The position numbers and the translations under genes are program-made. A stretch of 61,968 bases of DNA, the filler included, from Alphaproteobacteria bacterium (lineage in GTDB: Bacteria; Pseudomonadota; Alphaproteobacteria; Caedimonadales; UBA9215), in assembly GCA_024280495.1 (NCBI GenBank). It is 5 parts of 5 records of this genome, joined end to end, with 100 filler letters (N's around TTAATTAATTAA, not from the genome) between each part and the next. Parts side by side here need not be neighbours in the genome. Positions count along the whole stretch, not along the records: positions 55,004 to 61,968 come from JAJRPZ010000001.1; 4 more parts are not named here. One strand, written 5' to 3'. Positions 21,879-60,931 of this stretch are shown piece by piece. Within the stretch, counting starts at the first letter, position 1; the number at the start of each line of letters is the position of its first letter. The notes beneath the pieces are model-generated. The model saw nothing but the letters and a program-made list of their open reading frames with translations. It was not told the origin of the DNA and did not search any database.

Positions 21879-21978
21879 NNNNNNNNNNNNNNNNNNNNNN
21901 NNNNNNNNNNNNNNNNNNNNNNTTAATTAATTAANNNNNNNNNNNNNNNNNNNNNNNNNNNNNNNNNNNNNNNNNNNN
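21879..21978. other. Artificial contig linker
   Basis: N44-TTAATTAATTAA-N44 (stops in all frames). Confidence 0.98.
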
Positions 21979-26560: not shown

Positions 26561-26660
26561 NNNNNNNNNNNNNNNNNNNNNNNNNNNNNNNNNNNNNNNN
26601 NNNNTTAATTAATTAANNNNNNNNNNNNNNNNNNNNNNNNNNNNNNNNNNNNNNNNNNNN
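26561..26660. other. Artificial contig linker
   Basis: N44-TTAATTAATTAA-N44. Confidence 0.98.
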
Positions 26661-54903: not shown

Positions 54904-55003
54904 NNNNNNNNNNNNNNNNNNNNNNNNNNNNNNNNNNNNNNNNNNNNTTAATTAATTAANNNNNNNNNNNNNNNNNNNNNNNNNNNNNNNNNNNNNNNNN
55001 NNN
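54904..55003. other. Artificial contig linker
   Basis: N44-TTAATTAATTAA-N44. Confidence 0.98.
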
Positions 55004-55014
55004 AGGGAAATGAT

Positions 55015-55611
55015 TTAAACAAGCTCATCATCACGGATTTCTGGGTCAGTATTTTTAAAAAGACCATACGCAAGACCAATGTTAGAATGAATCCCGCCAC
55101 TTGGAAAAAATGCCTGCGCCCATTTTGAGAATGTCAACATTGAAGAAACAGGAACATTATTTAAAAGAAAGTCCAGATACACCCTTCTAGATTTAATGTT
55201 TTTTGCTAGATTTCCCCCCTCAACGACTTCCGATATACACAAACTACGCAATATTTTTTGTGCATTTTCTTCTACTAAAACGCCTTTAGGCAATTCTTCG
55301 TCAAAATAGTAAGACTGTAATAAAATTGGATCGAAAACAATATTCCTTAAGTCCCAAGAAACATAGGAAATATTCCAAAGATCAAGGGGTTTTAAATATT
55401 CTAAGACACTTAAAAGAAGTTCATCGGATAACAACAATAACTGAGAATTATTATTGCCATCATATATAAATTCTTCCTGAGTATAAACGAGGGTAACACT
55501 ATTTTTAACGGGAGGATCACATACCTCTGAGACATCGTTGCCAAAAGAAGCTCTTACCTCAAAAATGCTTATATGAATAAAAATAAAATAAAAAAATAAC
55601 CTGAGAGTCAT
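55015..55611 (-). CDS. Secreted F-box domain protein
   Basis: Signal peptide (..FEVRA/S) then LLLLSDELLLSVLEYLKPLDLWNISYVSWDLRNIVFDPIL, matching the F-box consensus (L..LP.E.L..I..YL...DL...S.VS..W......). Confidence 0.75.
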   Translation of the reverse strand: MTLRLFFYFIFIHISIFEVRASFGNDVSEVCDPPVKNSVTLVYTQEEFIYDGNNNSQLLLLSDELLLSVLEYLKPLDLWNISYVSWDLRNIVFDPILLQSYYFDEELPKGVLVEENAQKILRSLCISEVVEGGNLAKNIKSRRVYLDFLLNNVPVSSMLTFSKWAQAFFPSGGIHSNIGLAYGLFKNTDPEIRDDELV

Positions 55612-55670
55612 TTAATATAATCTCTTTTTCTAAAACAATATTGCTTGAAATAAAGCCATATCACAACTAA

Positions 55671-57140
55671 TCATATTTCAACAGAAAAAATATTTTCCAA
55701 TTGCTCAAAACCATCTTGAAAAGTGATTTTTTCATCTTTGTTCTGAGAAATAAAGTCATCCAGCTTGTCAAAAAAAGAAATGGCTTCATCAACGTTGGGG
55801 TTAGACCCTTCACGATAAGCTCCCAAACGAATAAGCTCTTCCATATCATCGTAAGTGGATAGATACCCCCTCGCCCGCTTAATAAGGTCACTTTCATAAG
55901 CATCATTGCAATCGGGCATGGTTCTTGAAATACTACGCAAGATATTGATGGCTGGAAAACGACCCCGTTCTGCAATTTTGCGATCCATCATAATATGACC
56001 ATCTAAAATACCACGGGTTGTATCGGAAATAGGTTCATTATCATCGCCGCCTTCAACCAAAACCGTAAAGAGCCCCGTGATATTCCCCATTTCATTGTGC
56101 GATCTATCATTTTTTCTATCTGAACCAGGCCCCGCGCGTTCTAAAAGCCGTGGCAACTCTACAAATACATTGGGGGTATACCCTTTGGTAGTGGGAGGCT
56201 CCCCAACGGACAATCCAATTTCCCGAAGAGCCATGGCAAAACGTGTGACACTATCCATCAAACAGAGAACTTCTTTTCCCTGATCTCGAAAATATTCTGC
56301 AACGGACATGGTTGTGTAAGCAGCACGCCGACGCATCAACGCTGGCTCGTCGGATGTTGCAACGATAACAACGGATCGCGCCATTCCCTCCATACCAAGA
56401 TGACGATCAATAAATTCACGGACTTCACGGCCACGTTCTCCAAGTAAACCAATGATAATAATATCGGCCTTTGAAAATTTGGCGAGCATGGAAAGTAAAA
56501 CAGATTTACCAACACCTGATCCTGCAAAAATCCCCATGCGCTGACCAGCACAGCAAGTTGTAAAAGTGTTCATTGCTCTAACACCAAGGTCGATACGATT
56601 TTCAACCAAACGACGCTGATGGGCAGGAATGGGCGACGCGTTCAGCTCATAGGCACTGGGGCCAGAAACAAGCCCCCCCTTTTCATCAACGGGAGACCCA
56701 AAAGCATCTAAAGTCCGACCAAGCCAACTATCATGAGGATAAATAACATTACTTTGTCCCTCATAAAAAACGCAACACCCAGGTCCTAGACCTTCAATGG
56801 ACGCATAGGCCATCACAAGGGATTGATCCCCCTTAAAACCAACAATTTCACAGGGAAAGGATTTTTTCTTACGATTTTCAATACGACAAATGGAACCAAC
56901 AGAAACTAATTTTTGTAATCCTGAAACTTCAATAATGCTTCCAACGATTGTAGTCACAAAACCATAGTGACTTGTTGAATCCAGACGTTCAATTTCGGCA
57001 TAAAGCCCCTTGAGCATGGGATTGTCAAGATTAGCTTCATCATTGCTCATATCATTTTGGAGTGCCTCAGGCAATGGAAGGTTAACCTCAAGATTTTGGG
57101 CAGTATCATCACTATTCATATTGGTTTCCTGTAAAGCCAC
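55671..57140 (-). CDS. fliI: Flagellar export ATPase FliI
   Basis: GQRMGIFAGSGVGKS, GERGREV, DSVTRFAMA, GEPPTTKGY, RGILDGHI. The start is uncertain. Confidence 0.95.
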   Translation of the reverse strand: MALQETNMNSDDTAQNLEVNLPLPEALQNDMSNDEANLDNPMLKGLYAEIERLDSTSHYGFVTTIVGSIIEVSGLQKLVSVGSICRIENRKKKSFPCEIVGFKGDQSLVMAYASIEGLGPGCCVFYEGQSNVIYPHDSWLGRTLDAFGSPVDEKGGLVSGPSAYELNASPIPAHQRRLVENRIDLGVRAMNTFTTCCAGQRMGIFAGSGVGKSVLLSMLAKFSKADIIIIGLLGERGREVREFIDRHLGMEGMARSVVIVATSDEPALMRRRAAYTTMSVAEYFRDQGKEVLCLMDSVTRFAMALREIGLSVGEPPTTKGYTPNVFVELPRLLERAGPGSDRKNDRSHNEMGNITGLFTVLVEGGDDNEPISDTTRGILDGHIMMDRKIAERGRFPAINILRSISRTMPDCNDAYESDLIKRARGYLSTYDDMEELIRLGAYREGSNPNVDEAISFFDKLDDFISQNKDEKITFQDGFEQLENIFSVEI

Positions 57141-57203
57141 ATAAATATTTTACACGATTTTACAAGAAGCCCTATTATTTTTTAAAAGAGTTTCAAAAAA
57201 AAT

Positions 57204-58187
57204 TTAAGGAGCCAATATCGTTTCTCTTTCAAAGACATCCAACAACCATAAAGGCGGACAATCAAGCCAACTTAATAAAATAGCAGTCAATAGATTGCCA
57301 GGCAAATAAGTAATAGATCCAGCTCTAACATAACAAAGGACTCCACGAATGTCATTTTTCTGAACAATTTGTAAAATTGCTTCTTTAGGTGTCTGAATCC
57401 GAGGTCTTATATTAGGGGTTTGAAGCCATAAAAGAACCAGTCTTTGTGGGGCTAAAATAACTCCAGATGTAAATGTTGTCAAAGTTCCCACACCTAAAAG
57501 TTGTGGCACTGAAAGCTGTTCACGCTCAAAATAATTTTGAAATAAGGTTCTGTATAGAATATCACACCCTAGATATACTGCCCAAGAACTGAAACTATTA
57601 AAAAGATAAAAAGCGGGTTGTTTATAGAGGGTTTTAGCATTCATAATGTCTTTTAAAGATGACCCAATAGTTTTATAGGGACTCGCTTTCCAAGAGAGTG
57701 CTACCTCGAATGGCTTCAAAAAAACAAGCTCAAACAACGCCATAGAAGTCGCTGTTGCAGTTGTTTTAATAGGCACCCCATGCCCTTGTGTTTTCGTGCC
57801 CACAAAATCATAAATCCACAATCGAATTGGCCAAAATAAAGACCTTGCCAAGCCAAGACCTATTCCATCATTCACTTGACGCATTCCTCCTATTTTCCAA
57901 GATTTTTTAATTTCTGAAAAGAGAGTTTTTCCAGAAAAACCAACGCGGTTCGTGTTGATAATAAGCCAGTGTTCCAGACCGTATCCAAAGACACGAGATC
58001 CTGCTATGGCTGCCATGAACCAATTGGGACGTTGGGAAATTGAGTCTTCTTGAGGGAGTAAAAAAGTTTTAAGGGGTACAGTAGTTGTAGGGAAGTCATT
58101 TGGGTCTTCTTTTAAGGGCACACATGCAAATACACCACAAAAAAAACACTTCAAAAATAAACACAACAAAGGTAATTTTATTAACAA
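57204..58187 (-). CDS. Divergent mitochondrial carrier family (SLC25-like) protein with N-terminal export signal
   Basis: Three roughly 90-100-aa repeats: YGLEHW..KIGGMRQVNDG...LARSL; LKPFEVA..TLYK...SWAVYLGCD; LAPQRLV..LQ..ILQIVQKNDIRGV. N-terminal hydrophobic leader ending GVFAC. Confidence 0.65.
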   Translation of the reverse strand: MLIKLPLLCLFLKCFFCGVFACVPLKEDPNDFPTTTVPLKTFLLPQEDSISQRPNWFMAAIAGSRVFGYGLEHWLIINTNRVGFSGKTLFSEIKKSWKIGGMRQVNDGIGLGLARSLFWPIRLWIYDFVGTKTQGHGVPIKTTATATSMALFELVFLKPFEVALSWKASPYKTIGSSLKDIMNAKTLYKQPAFYLFNSFSSWAVYLGCDILYRTLFQNYFEREQLSVPQLLGVGTLTTFTSGVILAPQRLVLLWLQTPNIRPRIQTPKEAILQIVQKNDIRGVLCYVRAGSITYLPGNLLTAILLSWLDCPPLWLLDVFERETILAP

Positions 58188-58275
58188 TATCTTTCTCCCT
58201 TTTCATTTTAATGGAAAGTATTCTGGTCAAAGGCATAGAAACACATTATCCTAATAAAAAAGAAAAGGGCATATC

Positions 58276-60087
58276 ATGAAACGTTTTTTTGGATTTTTTT
58301 TTAAAACACTAGGTGTTTTAGTGTTCATTCCTCTCATAGCCTTGATAGGCTTTACTTTTTTTGGCTCCCATAAATCCCTTAATATTCAACCCAATAGTGT
58401 GCTAACCCTTGATCTATCTTCCCCTATTATGGAAACATCTTCTTCATCGGGCATCCAAAAGATTTTAACGGGTCCTACTTTATCATTTTTTGATACATTG
58501 CGTGGTATTTCAAGTGCTCAAGCCGATCCACACATTCAAGCCATTGCCCTTTATGTGGAGACGCCAACCCTTGGTCTTGCTCAAATGGATGAAATCAGAA
58601 ATGCTCTTCTGGCCTTTAAAAAGTCTGGTAAAAAAATATATGCTTATGCCACCAGCCTTGGAGATTTCCATCCAGGAACAAGATCTTATTATATGGCGTC
58701 CGTTGCCGATCAAATCTGGATGCAACCCTACTCGAATTTCAACATTACGGGATTTCATATTGATCAACCTTTTTTTGGAGAAATCCTTGAGACCCTCTCC
58801 ATTAAACCACAAATTTTCGCACGCACGATTTACAAGAATGCCTATGCCTCCATGACTGACAGCAAGGCATCTGACCCACAAATCGAAGCTATGAACACCC
58901 TCCTGGGTCAATTTCACGAAACAATCTTCAATAATATTGAGGCCGCTCGTGAACTGGAAAAAGGGCTTTTGCACCGTCTCAGTGCTGAATCCCCTATGAT
59001 GTCTGATACAAAGGCAAAAGAAATGGGGATCATTGATTATTTGGGACATAAAGATCAATTCATTGCTGCTATTTTAGACCCTAATCCCTCTCTATCCCTT
59101 GAAAAAAATCAGAAAAAATCCCTTTATAATCACCCACGTTTAATCTCCATGAAAAAATATGCAAGTGAAATAAAATACCTTTTAAATAAAAAAAACCACC
59201 CTGAAAAAATAGCAATTATCTATGGCAACGGCGTCATTATGCCAAAGGACAGCAATTCTCCCTTTACCATGGGGCCTTCAGACACCATGGGCGCAAACAC
59301 TATTCAACAACAATTTGATGAAGTTTTATCTAACCCTTCTATCAAAGCCATTGTTTTTCGATTAGATACACCTGGTGGATCAGCAACGGCATCAGAAACC
59401 ATTAGGCGCTCTGTCATTATCGCCAAAGAAAAAGGGGTCCCTGTCATCGCATCCTTTGGTAATGTTTCTGCTTCTGGTGGCTATTGGATAGCGGCATCCT
59501 GTGATAAAATTTTAGCAAGCCCTCTTACCATCACTGGATCTATCGGGGTTTTAGCTGGCAAGGTCGTTTTTAATGAAGCTCTCAGTATGTTTAATATCAA
59601 CACGAGTTCTTTTTCTGCTGGCGAGAATGGCTCTATGTGGTCTCCCTTAACGCCCTATACAGAAAAACAAATGGAATTAATCAACACGAGCATGGATCTT
59701 TTTTATGAAAGGTTCATTGAACTCGTCTCCAAGGGGCGCAATTTATCACTGGATCACGTCAGTGAAATAGCTAAAGGCCGTGTGTGGTCTGGTGTTGACG
59801 CCTTGAATTTTGGCCTGGTGGATGAATATGGTGGATTAAATAAAGCCCTAAAAGTCGCTGCAAAACTCGGCGGCATTGCCCAAAACAAGCCCATCACCGT
59901 TCTAGAATATCCTCAAGAAAAAAACCTGGTGGATACAGTAGAAGACTTAATCAGTGGAGAAACTCAGATGATTTCTGATCCCATGCAGAGCTTATGGCAA
60001 ATTTTTCAAAGGATTATTCTATCTCTGCAATTGATGACATCATCGGAGGTTCAGATTCGCGAAACACAAATCGTTAATGTACGTTAA
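58276..60087 (+). CDS. sppA: Signal peptide peptidase SppA (67-kDa type)
   Basis: Two S49 domains: YYMASVAD, YKNA, LDTPGGSATAS, SASGGYWIA, TITGSIGV, AKGRVWSG. Confidence 0.93.
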   Translation: MKRFFGFFFKTLGVLVFIPLIALIGFTFFGSHKSLNIQPNSVLTLDLSSPIMETSSSSGIQKILTGPTLSFFDTLRGISSAQADPHIQAIALYVETPTLGLAQMDEIRNALLAFKKSGKKIYAYATSLGDFHPGTRSYYMASVADQIWMQPYSNFNITGFHIDQPFFGEILETLSIKPQIFARTIYKNAYASMTDSKASDPQIEAMNTLLGQFHETIFNNIEAARELEKGLLHRLSAESPMMSDTKAKEMGIIDYLGHKDQFIAAILDPNPSLSLEKNQKKSLYNHPRLISMKKYASEIKYLLNKKNHPEKIAIIYGNGVIMPKDSNSPFTMGPSDTMGANTIQQQFDEVLSNPSIKAIVFRLDTPGGSATASETIRRSVIIAKEKGVPVIASFGNVSASGGYWIAASCDKILASPLTITGSIGVLAGKVVFNEALSMFNINTSSFSAGENGSMWSPLTPYTEKQMELINTSMDLFYERFIELVSKGRNLSLDHVSEIAKGRVWSGVDALNFGLVDEYGGLNKALKVAAKLGGIAQNKPITVLEYPQEKNLVDTVEDLISGETQMISDPMQSLWQIFQRIILSLQLMTSSEVQIRETQIVNVR

Positions 60088-60198
60088 GTTATTGAATTAA
60101 CTTCTTCAATATAATCATTTCAGTCTATAAACAAAAAAACACGCCTATATTTTTATAGGCGTGGGAGTGATTGACGACGTCTGTAAATTTCTTGTAAG

Positions 60199-60858
60199 CT
60201 ATAAGATACTTTGCCCCGTGGCCTTCCAATCTTTTTCAAAGGTCTCTAAGCCTTTATATGTCAATGGATGGTCGTACATAGCCTTTATTATTTTACCTGG
60301 TAAGGTCGCCACATCAGCGCCTAATAAGGCAACATCTTGCACATGTTTTGTGGAACGTATTGATGCTGCTAGAATTTCCGTTTCAAATTCTGGGTAATTC
60401 ATATAAATATCTGCAATATCAGAAATTAAATCCGTACCATCCATACCAAGGTCATCAAGGCGACCCAAAAAAGGGGAAATAAACGCAGCACCAGCCTTAG
60501 CAGCTAATAATGCTTGGTTAGCAGTAAAACACAAAGTGACATTCACCAATGTATTATCAGAAGAAAGCGCACGACAAACGCGAAGACCATCAATGGTTAA
60601 GGGAACTTTAATGGCAATGTTATCAGAAATTTTGCGCAAGACTTCTGCTTCTTTCATCATGGTTTCGTAATCAAAAGAAGTTACTTCGGCACTCACTGGA
60701 CCATGAGAAACAAGGGTACTAATTTCTGCGATGACTTCTTTGAAGTCACGGCCAGATTTAGCAATAAGAGAGGGGTTTGTTGTTACTCCATCAACCATAC
60801 CAGTTTGGACAAGGTCTTTGATTTCAGAGATATCAGCCGAATCAAGAAATATTTTCAT
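60199..60858 (-). CDS. tal: Transaldolase / fructose-6-phosphate aldolase (TalC type)
   Basis: [47 protein letters not shown]. Confidence 0.94.
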
Positions 60859-60931
60859 GGTTATTATATCCTTTAAGGTCAAAAAATTATATGGTCATCA
60901 TACATAGGATAAATATAAAGAACAATAAATA

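Follow-up and report, generated by a model that had tools for sequence, protein, structure and literature searches.

A highly diverged mitochondrial-carrier homologue with a Sec-type leader in an alphaproteobacterial genome

What would a bacterium do with a protein built like a mitochondrial carrier? To our knowledge, mitochondrial carriers have been treated as a eukaryotic invention, and a single bacterial member has been characterised, which is injected as an effector. The question is raised by an open reading frame (ORF) in a 61,968-nucleotide stretch of alphaproteobacterial DNA (GenBank assembly GCA_024280495.1; hereafter the window), whose product we call the window protein. The window is a composite of five contigs from a single metagenome-assembled genome (MAG), with a pair of 44-N spacers at each junction (21879-21978, 26561-26660, 37834-37933, and 54904-55003), and the gene neighbourhood of the ORF is readable within 55004-61968 only, which is the last piece (contig C47). 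The source assembly (G000) has a size of 1.14 Mb in 99 contigs and is 89% complete. In this study, we established the family of the window protein through its relatives and weighed what the protein may do. We give an even chance to a resident inner-membrane carrier of the bacterium that serves for a host metabolite and has a changed gate. The likelihoods that we attach to the several readings below overlap and do not divide up a whole.

Homology to the mitochondrial carrier family

The ORF, its ribosome-binding site, and the three carrier repeats of its product are located as follows.

57204..58187, minus strand: carrier-homologue ORF, 327 amino acids plus stop, TTG start (ORF call, homology, and fold)
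58195..58199, minus strand: Shine-Dalgarno core GGGAG, 7 nt upstream of the TTG (read from the sequence)
57780..58025, minus strand: carrier repeat 1, residues 55-136, with helix 1 (H1), a matrix helix, and H2 (hhalign, alignment, and AlphaFold)
57513..57779, minus strand: carrier repeat 2, residues 137-225, with H3, a matrix helix, and H4 (hhalign, alignment, and AlphaFold)
57255..57512, minus strand: carrier repeat 3, residues 226-311, with H5, a matrix helix, and H6 (hhalign, alignment, and AlphaFold)

Searched by itself, the window protein gave no match in Pfam at E ≤ 1 and none among the PDB sequences with phmmer at E ≤ 10; a six-frame search of the source genome for Mito_carr gave 0 matches, and a word-based homologue search of 5.8 billion proteins returned the window protein alone. 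When 1.84 billion representatives were searched in full with HMMER, only the protein itself, P0003 (9.7e-34), and P0004 (1.3e-20) were recovered. A lead was provided by the ESM Atlas, in which 28 of the 30 nearest clusters were Mito_carr, with a top score of 0.93. Among 61 related genomes, two of the same genus were found to encode an orthologue, namely, G003 (35% identity, E 1e-38) and G004 (32% identity, E 7e-35), and G010 gave a weak match (E 1.8e-4). These three proteins passed the Mito_carr cut-off of 22.3 bits at 28.9, 43.7, and 116.5 bits, respectively.

Profile comparisons were based on an alignment of six sequences (A1), an alignment of only the four sequences of the clade to which the window protein belongs (A2; hereafter the window clade), and an alignment of 28 sequences of a canonical bacterial and protist subfamily (A3). 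The canonical subfamily is marked by the motifs IEHPFD and KQxYRWPMM and occurs in Chlamydiales, Holosporaceae, Paracaedibacteraceae, and other MAGs; its nearest named eukaryotes are Tetrahymena, Stylonychia, and Planoprotostelium. The A2 profile retrieved UCP2 (3.4e-5), the ADP/ATP carrier (2.7e-4), and UCP1 (0.006) from PDB, and the first six of its 10 matches at E ≤ 10 were carriers, the other four being PsaE (E 0.69-1.8). A comparison of A2 with A3 by hhalign gave 99.2% (E 2.9e-19) over 255 columns, covering residues 56-311 and hence all six helices, which amounts to full-length collinear homology. The canonical subfamily is the closest known system by profile, scoring up to 79 bits against the clade profile versus 26 bits for the best PDB carrier. 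In A2, the window protein shares only 27-31% identity with the other clade members. Pfam misses the window protein, but transitivity through the orthologues and the profile comparison confirm, at the level of sequence, that the ORF product is a genuine, extremely diverged SLC25 (PF00153) homologue. We infer a eukaryotic origin for the subfamily; the tree has no outgroup, did not place the window clade, and supports no direction of transfer.

The predicted structure agrees with this assignment. AlphaFold returned a six-helix, threefold carrier fold from the four clade sequences alone (pLDDT 63.5, pTM 0.66), and a Foldseek search with this model placed mitochondrial carriers at all of ranks 1-16, with TM up to 0.63 and with TM below 0.25 past rank 16, among the matches listed. 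A model from 47 sequences, which leans on the canonical sequences in its alignment as the four-sequence model does not, reached pLDDT 81.8 and pTM 0.77, with a core above pLDDT 90. Compared with 48,161 chains, the 47-sequence model matched UCP1 (8hbv) with a Z score of 21.2 (257 residues aligned, root-mean-square deviation 3.7), Tetrahymena carriers with Z 20.7 (8bqs_DV, bound to complex IV) and 14.3 (7w5z_M3), and the bovine ADP/ATP carrier (2c3e) with Z 16.3, whereas the best unrelated chain had Z 8.6. CysZ and YihY are proposed as remote bacterial homologues of the carrier family in the accessible part of a 2026 preprint; CysZ was found in the same search at Z 5.7, far under the carriers. 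The window protein thus has the six helices, three matrix helices, and threefold pseudo-symmetry of SLC25 proteins such as 8hbv, 2c3e, and 8bqs_DV, and differs from them in being encoded by a bacterium, in its Sec-type leader and acidic spacer, in its lack of any intact gate motif, and in its silence in Pfam.

An earlier examination of this DNA, made from the sequence alone (hereafter the sequence-only reading), had proposed a carrier homologue with a threefold repeat. The family is borne out by the orthologues, by hhalign, and by the fold search; the Pfam check that it suggested fails for the protein itself and succeeds for the orthologues in G003 and G004. Its structural check against the ADP/ATP carrier likewise came out in favour of a six-helix carrier fold, with carriers rather than an unrelated bacterial membrane family as the best hits. 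The repeat is a mixed case, because the carrier fold is predicted but comparison of the three repeats of the clade with each other by hhalign was not significant, the best E values being 0.028 (repeat 1 versus 3) and 0.26 (repeat 2 versus 3), although the register of the local alignments is as expected. It is only through family and fold that the internal threefold repeat can be regarded as established.

The matrix gate, helix 2, and selection on the gene

In SLC25 carriers, the odd-numbered helices (1, 3, and 5) bear the signature Px[DE]xx[KR], which provides the matrix salt-bridge network, and the even-numbered helices (2, 4, and 6) bear [FY][DE]xx[KR], which provides the cytoplasmic network. 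In the window protein, all three Px[DE]xx[KR] motifs are incomplete; Pro is kept in two, the acid in one, and the base in none.

57951-57968, minus strand: gate motif 1, WLIINT, residues 74-79 (alignment to canonical relatives)
57696-57713, minus strand: gate motif 2, PFEVAL, with Pro and Glu kept and the base lost (alignment)
57432-57449, minus strand: gate motif 3, PQRLVL, with Pro kept, the acid changed to Arg, and the base lost (alignment)

By contrast, all three motifs are kept in 53 of the 66 aligned relatives. Only two of these 66 rows, the window protein and P0004, have no gate motif, and a single motif is kept in G003, G004, G019, P0005, and P0006. The sequence-only reading was therefore right that the salt-bridge motifs are lost and had two of them, PFEVAL and PQRLVL, in register; its first motif, GLEHWL, lies four residues too far N-terminal of the true position, WLIINT. 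The window protein and the canonical subfamily have in common an EH dipeptide ahead of the kink in helix 1. At the positions of the cytoplasmic network, located by eye in A1, the window protein reads IYDFVG, CDILYR, and SWLDCP, none of which fits the motif; the canonical bacterial subfamily fits poorly too. Helix 2 is also remodelled. The most conserved helix-2 block of the canonical subfamily is KQxYRWP, and a five-residue gap in the window protein removes KQxYR, such that WP alone remains of the block KQxYR[WY]P[ML]M in the hhalign alignment. In addition, the six helix regions hold approximately 20 charged residues in the clade versus approximately 29 in the other sequences.

A protein altered to this extent could be the relic of a carrier that has lost transport and is either drifting to loss or reused as a non-transporting membrane protein. 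The low count of gate motifs shared with one other row, the helix-2 deletion, the empty Pfam and single-sequence PDB searches, and the absence of the gene from two genomes of the genus would all suit a relic, as would the tree, in which the clade stem is 3.38 and the end branch of the window protein (3.73) is the longest terminal branch. However, the carrier gene is under purifying selection with its frame intact, and it has a good ribosome-binding site. The dN/dS ratio between the carriers of G003 and G004 was 0.27 (dS 0.95), compared with 0.046 for the neighbouring fliI, and the ratio of carrier dN to FliI dN was 4.4 on the window lineage and 5.3 within the genus; these similar ratios indicate that the window copy is not specially accelerated. 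Moreover, the clade alignment has 43 invariant columns, among them intrahelical Arg, Glu, and Asp residues that are conserved at 27-31% identity to the window protein, and the core of the model is confidently predicted. We thus regard a relic as quite unlikely.

The leader, the bacterial membrane, and the effector reading

The N-terminal part of the window protein, ahead of the carrier repeats, comprises two segments.

58122..58187, minus strand: Sec-type hydrophobic leader, residues 1-22 (sequence, and homologous leaders in relatives)
58026..58121, minus strand: Pro-rich, acidic, disordered spacer, residues 23-54 (alignment, composition, and pLDDT below 50)

The leader starts with MLIK, continues with a hydrophobic stretch broken by Lys13, and ends in VFA before a C at the presumed cut. 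Since GGGAG lies 7 nt 5′ of the TTG at 58187, this TTG can be taken as the start and the leader as most likely translated; no Shine-Dalgarno site was found before the first internal ATG of the ORF (Met58). Homologous leaders are present in all six sequences of A1 and in 20 of the 66 aligned relatives, and every leader-bearing row with a named organism is alphaproteobacterial (Caedibacter sp., Holosporaceae, and others). The alphaproteobacterial members of the canonical subfamily share this feature with the window protein. None of the five chlamydial rows has a leader, and these proteins begin just before helix 1. The clade profile scored the leader-bearing Caedibacter-type sequences at 65-79 bits versus 41.6-48.4 bits for the five chlamydial rows; because the leader-bearing group scores best, the leader looks inherited. 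The spacer contains seven Pro (counted by eye), five Asp/Glu, and three Lys/Arg residues, and both AlphaFold models leave it disordered (pLDDT below 50). Its KEDPNDF corresponds in A1 to PEEDF or PEDEG after the equivalent leaders of the orthologues. Both the export-signal leader and the Pro-rich acidic spacer noticed in the sequence-only reading are therefore real.

A signal peptide yields an N-out topology, which is that of carriers in mitochondria. The three matrix-side loops of the window protein contain 13 Lys and Arg residues versus five on the other side; these charges fit an N-out orientation, but they would do so for any carrier. The helices are weakly hydrophobic, with a mean best 19-residue Kyte-Doolittle value of approximately 1.0, and the means for the clade (1.00), the other leader-bearing sequences (1.01), and the leaderless sequences (0.99) are no different. 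Hydrophobic helices as a sign of adaptation to Sec insertion were accordingly rejected.

The Sec-type leader, together with the metabolic gene neighbourhoods of relatives described in the next section, favours the bacterium's own inner membrane. As to membrane location, topology, substrate, and transport mode, we infer the following course of events. A carrier gene would have gained a Sec-type signal peptide within alphaproteobacterial symbionts. The leader would direct the nascent protein to SecYEG, with the acidic N-terminal tail ending in the periplasm, and the six helices would insert with the Lys/Arg-rich "matrix" loops in the bacterial cytoplasm, which is the orientation of the family in mitochondria. 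A metabolite of the host cytosol would cross the outer membrane to the periplasm, and the carrier would import it into the bacterium. In the window clade, in which the matrix-gate salt bridges are all gone and helix 2 is remodelled, the mode may be facilitated diffusion rather than strict exchange.

The genes around the ORF bear on a different proposal, namely, that of the sequence-only reading, which took the protein for an effector targeted to host mitochondria. The gene order on the contig is F-box gene, fliI, target, sppA, transaldolase/FSA gene, and priA.

55671..57140, minus strand: fliI, flagellar/type III ATPase (Pfam ATP-synt_ab 276 bits, T3SS_ATPase_C 69.9 bits)
55015-55611, minus strand: F-box protein, 198 amino acids (Pfam F-box 25.8 bits, F-box-like 25.6 bits)
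60199-60882: transaldolase/FSA gene

The gene fliI lies 63 nt downstream of the carrier ORF on the same strand. This neighbour is conserved, as the carrier stands directly upstream of fliI in the orthologous loci of G003 and G004, in which the neighbours are groEL and fliI. The relatives of fliI are assigned to "Holosporales bacterium" and "Alphaproteobacteria bacterium", and the source genome has three TLC ATP/ADP translocase genes, which together point to a Holosporales-like intracellular alphaproteobacterium.

According to the effector proposal, a secreted protein similar to LncP of Legionella pneumophila would enter host mitochondria and change the flow of metabolites there, perhaps by forming a leaky or ungated pore; the sequence-only reading also considered a decoy. 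LncP, compared here by description only, is likewise a mitochondrial-carrier-family protein encoded by an intracellular bacterium; the accessible part of its report (PMC3252375) describes injection by Dot/Icm, assembly through TIM22, avoidance of Sec/YidC, and retained carrier activity. A second precedent is Lpg1137 of Legionella, also compared by description only, which is carrier-like, diverged past standard searches, and, in the portion of the source available (PMC5621508), a translocated effector with syntaxin 17 as its reported target. The window gene also evolves fast and is patchy in the genus, being present in three of five genomes, and its weakly hydrophobic helices are those expected of proteins that avoid the bacterial membrane. 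The F-box protein, encoded by the next gene but one, carries a Sec-like N-terminal leader (MTLRLFFYFIFIHISIFEVRA, then S after the cut point) and is the sole above-cut-off F-box match in the source genome. Because F-box function requires a eukaryotic cytosol, this leader may be a sign of export to the host by way of Sec.

Nevertheless, Sec signals play no part in one-step injection systems, and a protein of six helices with a Sec leader would be drawn off to the inner membrane; we know of no outer-membrane route for such a protein. The window protein differs from LncP in exactly this leader and in having no intact gate motif, and from Lpg1137 in that we read it as resident. The canonical relatives, leader-bearing ones included, are embedded beside genes for thiamine salvage and transketolase, which would be hard to explain for an effector. 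VirB4, TssC, and a coupling protein were not found in the source genome, which at 89% completeness is 1.14 Mb, whereas four congeners (G001-G004, 1.5-1.8 Mb) have both TssC, a component of the type VI secretion system (T6SS), and homologues of the type IV coupling protein. The absence of the latter two from the source genome may be a real reduction or may reflect the incomplete assembly, and the congeners weaken missing injection systems as an argument against an effector. In the accessible part of a review of Holosporales (PMC11909080), the T6SS is given as the likely effector route, with flagella as a possible additional one. Taken together, the leader and the relatives leave the effector proposal unsupported, and we consider it improbable, though to be kept in mind.

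The source genome also encodes two T2SSE-family ATPases and two orphan secretins.

C42:14200-15963 of G000 (locus L038): orphan secretin gene
C73:16516-18471 of G000 (locus L039): orphan secretin gene

These secretin genes adjoin rpoA/rplQ and hemB/uvrA with no recognisable secretion operon, and both products appear to have lipoprotein signals.

Thiamine as a candidate substrate

For a resident inner-membrane carrier, the gene neighbourhoods of the canonical relatives suggest what might be carried. We scanned 14 genome loci with Pfam and 52 metagenome loci with our own profiles; many of the latter are short or contain split, probably eukaryotic, genes. Thiamin pyrophosphokinase (TPK) adjoins the carrier in four of the 14 genome loci, three chlamydial and one from Holosporaceae with a leader-bearing carrier, and transketolase is near the carrier in four of the 14. 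The Holosporaceae locus also has ThiD/TenA and a thiamine pyrophosphate (TPP) enzyme gene. Among the metagenome loci, our profiles detected TPK in 8/52 and transketolase in 2/52. Pfam confirmed TPK in L067, L080, L097, and L107, as well as ThiE in L069 and transketolase in L072, and the carrier of L097 is leader-bearing and belongs to the group closest to the window clade. The arrangements of TPK and carrier are co-directional, convergent, or divergent, indicating that the linkage is not one inherited operon. The positions of canonical relatives beside TPK, transketolase, and ThiE genes point to carriers that serve bacterial metabolism, and these neighbourhoods are most simply explained if the canonical subfamily imports thiamine into the bacterium.

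Tandem carrier genes were observed at several of these loci. In the chlamydia-type loci L040 (2977-4792), L041 (2977-4721), and L066 (3947-5792), a tandem carrier pair lies between TPK and transketolase, and L072 (3989-5712) has a tandem pair with transketolase, TPK not being found there. In these pairs, the second paralogue has diverged much further, scoring 27-34 bits against the profile of the window clade. Four carrier genes stand in tandem in L103 (262-4933), a metagenome contig of 25% GC, and also in the related contig L104 (295-5026).

The supply of thiamine in the genus of the source organism was consistent with a need for import. Transketolase is present in four of five genomes of the genus and pyruvate dehydrogenase E1 in the source genome, whereas TPK, ThiE, and ThiL were each found in none of the five (0/5). 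With thiamine-diphosphate (ThDP) enzymes and without TPK, ThiE, and ThiL, the cofactor must be imported as the diphosphate. The same import need has been argued for Rickettsia, for which the available part of the report names no identified transporter (PMC5615194). Because canonical members are tied to TPK and transketolase and the genus has ThDP enzymes with no detectable cofactor synthesis, ThDP or thiamine would be the leading candidate substrate of the window protein, although we rate this assignment itself as unlikely. The same low likelihood is attached to the wider proposal that protist-dwelling bacteria domesticated mitochondrial carriers for their own inner membrane, drawing on the cytosolic metabolites that mitochondria also use. 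The alphaproteobacterial forms would have gained a Sec signal for this purpose, with the canonical carriers importing vitamin B1 and the window clade, in a genus that would have lost all thiamine-phosphorylating enzymes, acting as a gate-less ThDP importer. The window protein and the canonical subfamily differ in that the latter keeps its gate motifs, with many members beside TPK or transketolase, and the former has lost the gate and KQxYR and adjoins fliI.

Several observations weigh against a resident carrier for thiamine. First, the link to thiamine is uncertain for the window protein, to which it extends by homology only: the window locus is without TPK, transketolase, or ThiE, these genes likewise do not adjoin the carrier in the loci of G003 and G004, and no TPP riboswitch or any other regulatory RNA was detected in 20 carrier loci at the gathering threshold. 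As helix 2 of the clade is remodelled and KQxYR is absent, the substrate is uncertain and may differ. Second, among the 23 genomes of the order, 16 gave no sign of either the carrier or TPK, which implies that another cofactor importer must exist, and in G002 transketolase is present and the carrier was not found. Third, the gene is dispensable. It had no match in G001 or G002, and groEL and fliI are directly adjacent in one close relative, no remnant of the gene being left (tblastn, nothing below E 0.03). Fourth, the rate of change is far above that of a resident transporter. The TLC/NTT transporters, of unrelated fold and family, would play the same role as the window protein on our best reading, that is, they are resident in the inner membrane and tap host cytosolic metabolites; TLC is 86% identical in the genus and FliI 78%, whereas the carrier is 35% identical to its orthologue. 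Finally, a crude signal-peptide rule picked out 143 of 1065 ORFs, the F-box neighbour among them, but passed over the target owing to its internal Lys13, and helices as weakly hydrophobic as those of leaderless relatives leave Sec-mediated insertion unassured.

A resident carrier could also serve for another substrate, for example nucleotides, cofactors such as S-adenosylmethionine (SAM), or keto acids. Helix-2 and helix-4 positions conserved in the subfamily differ in the clade, and carrier-bearing genomes of the order are without TPK. In G010, which has the order's nearest canonical relative, the carrier lies beside genes for a SAM hydroxide adenosyltransferase-like protein, an aldehyde dehydrogenase, a transaldolase, and TLC, with no thiamine genes. 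However, nothing positive favours any particular alternative, and three TLC nucleotide transporters are already present in the source genome. We consider a substrate other than thiamine possible but doubtful.

Two further observations concern these neighbourhoods. A transaldolase/FSA gene occurs within approximately 2 kb of the carrier in the window and in a Caedibacter sp. locus (L064, 1237-2460), which may be a coincidence or may reflect a link to the pentose-phosphate pathway, which uses transketolase. The genome G017 belongs to the same order and has no carrier; here, TPK overlaps the start of a gene for a large polytopic protein (L117, 1324-3281). This protein is weakly similar to sodium:solute symporters (SSF; 19.9 bits, below the cut-off), occupies the position of the carrier elsewhere, and could be another kind of thiamine importer. 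Carriers in L049, L054, and L082 likewise have SSF genes next to them.

Among the papers covered by our literature search, none connects carriers to Holosporales or Caedibacter, and none connects bacterial carriers to thiamine. If the resident-carrier reading with thiamine as substrate is true, symbionts would have borrowed the import tool of an organelle, through a branch of the family with export signals that occurs in thiamine-salvage clusters. The carriers would then be a testable candidate for the uptake of vitamin B1 or ThDP by obligate intracellular bacteria and would put a name to a candidate for the cofactor importer that, according to the accessible part of the Rickettsia report (PMC5615194), obligate intracellular alphaproteobacteria need. 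The window copy may itself be seen as a natural experiment, in which a carrier fold stays under selection after losing every salt bridge of the matrix gate.

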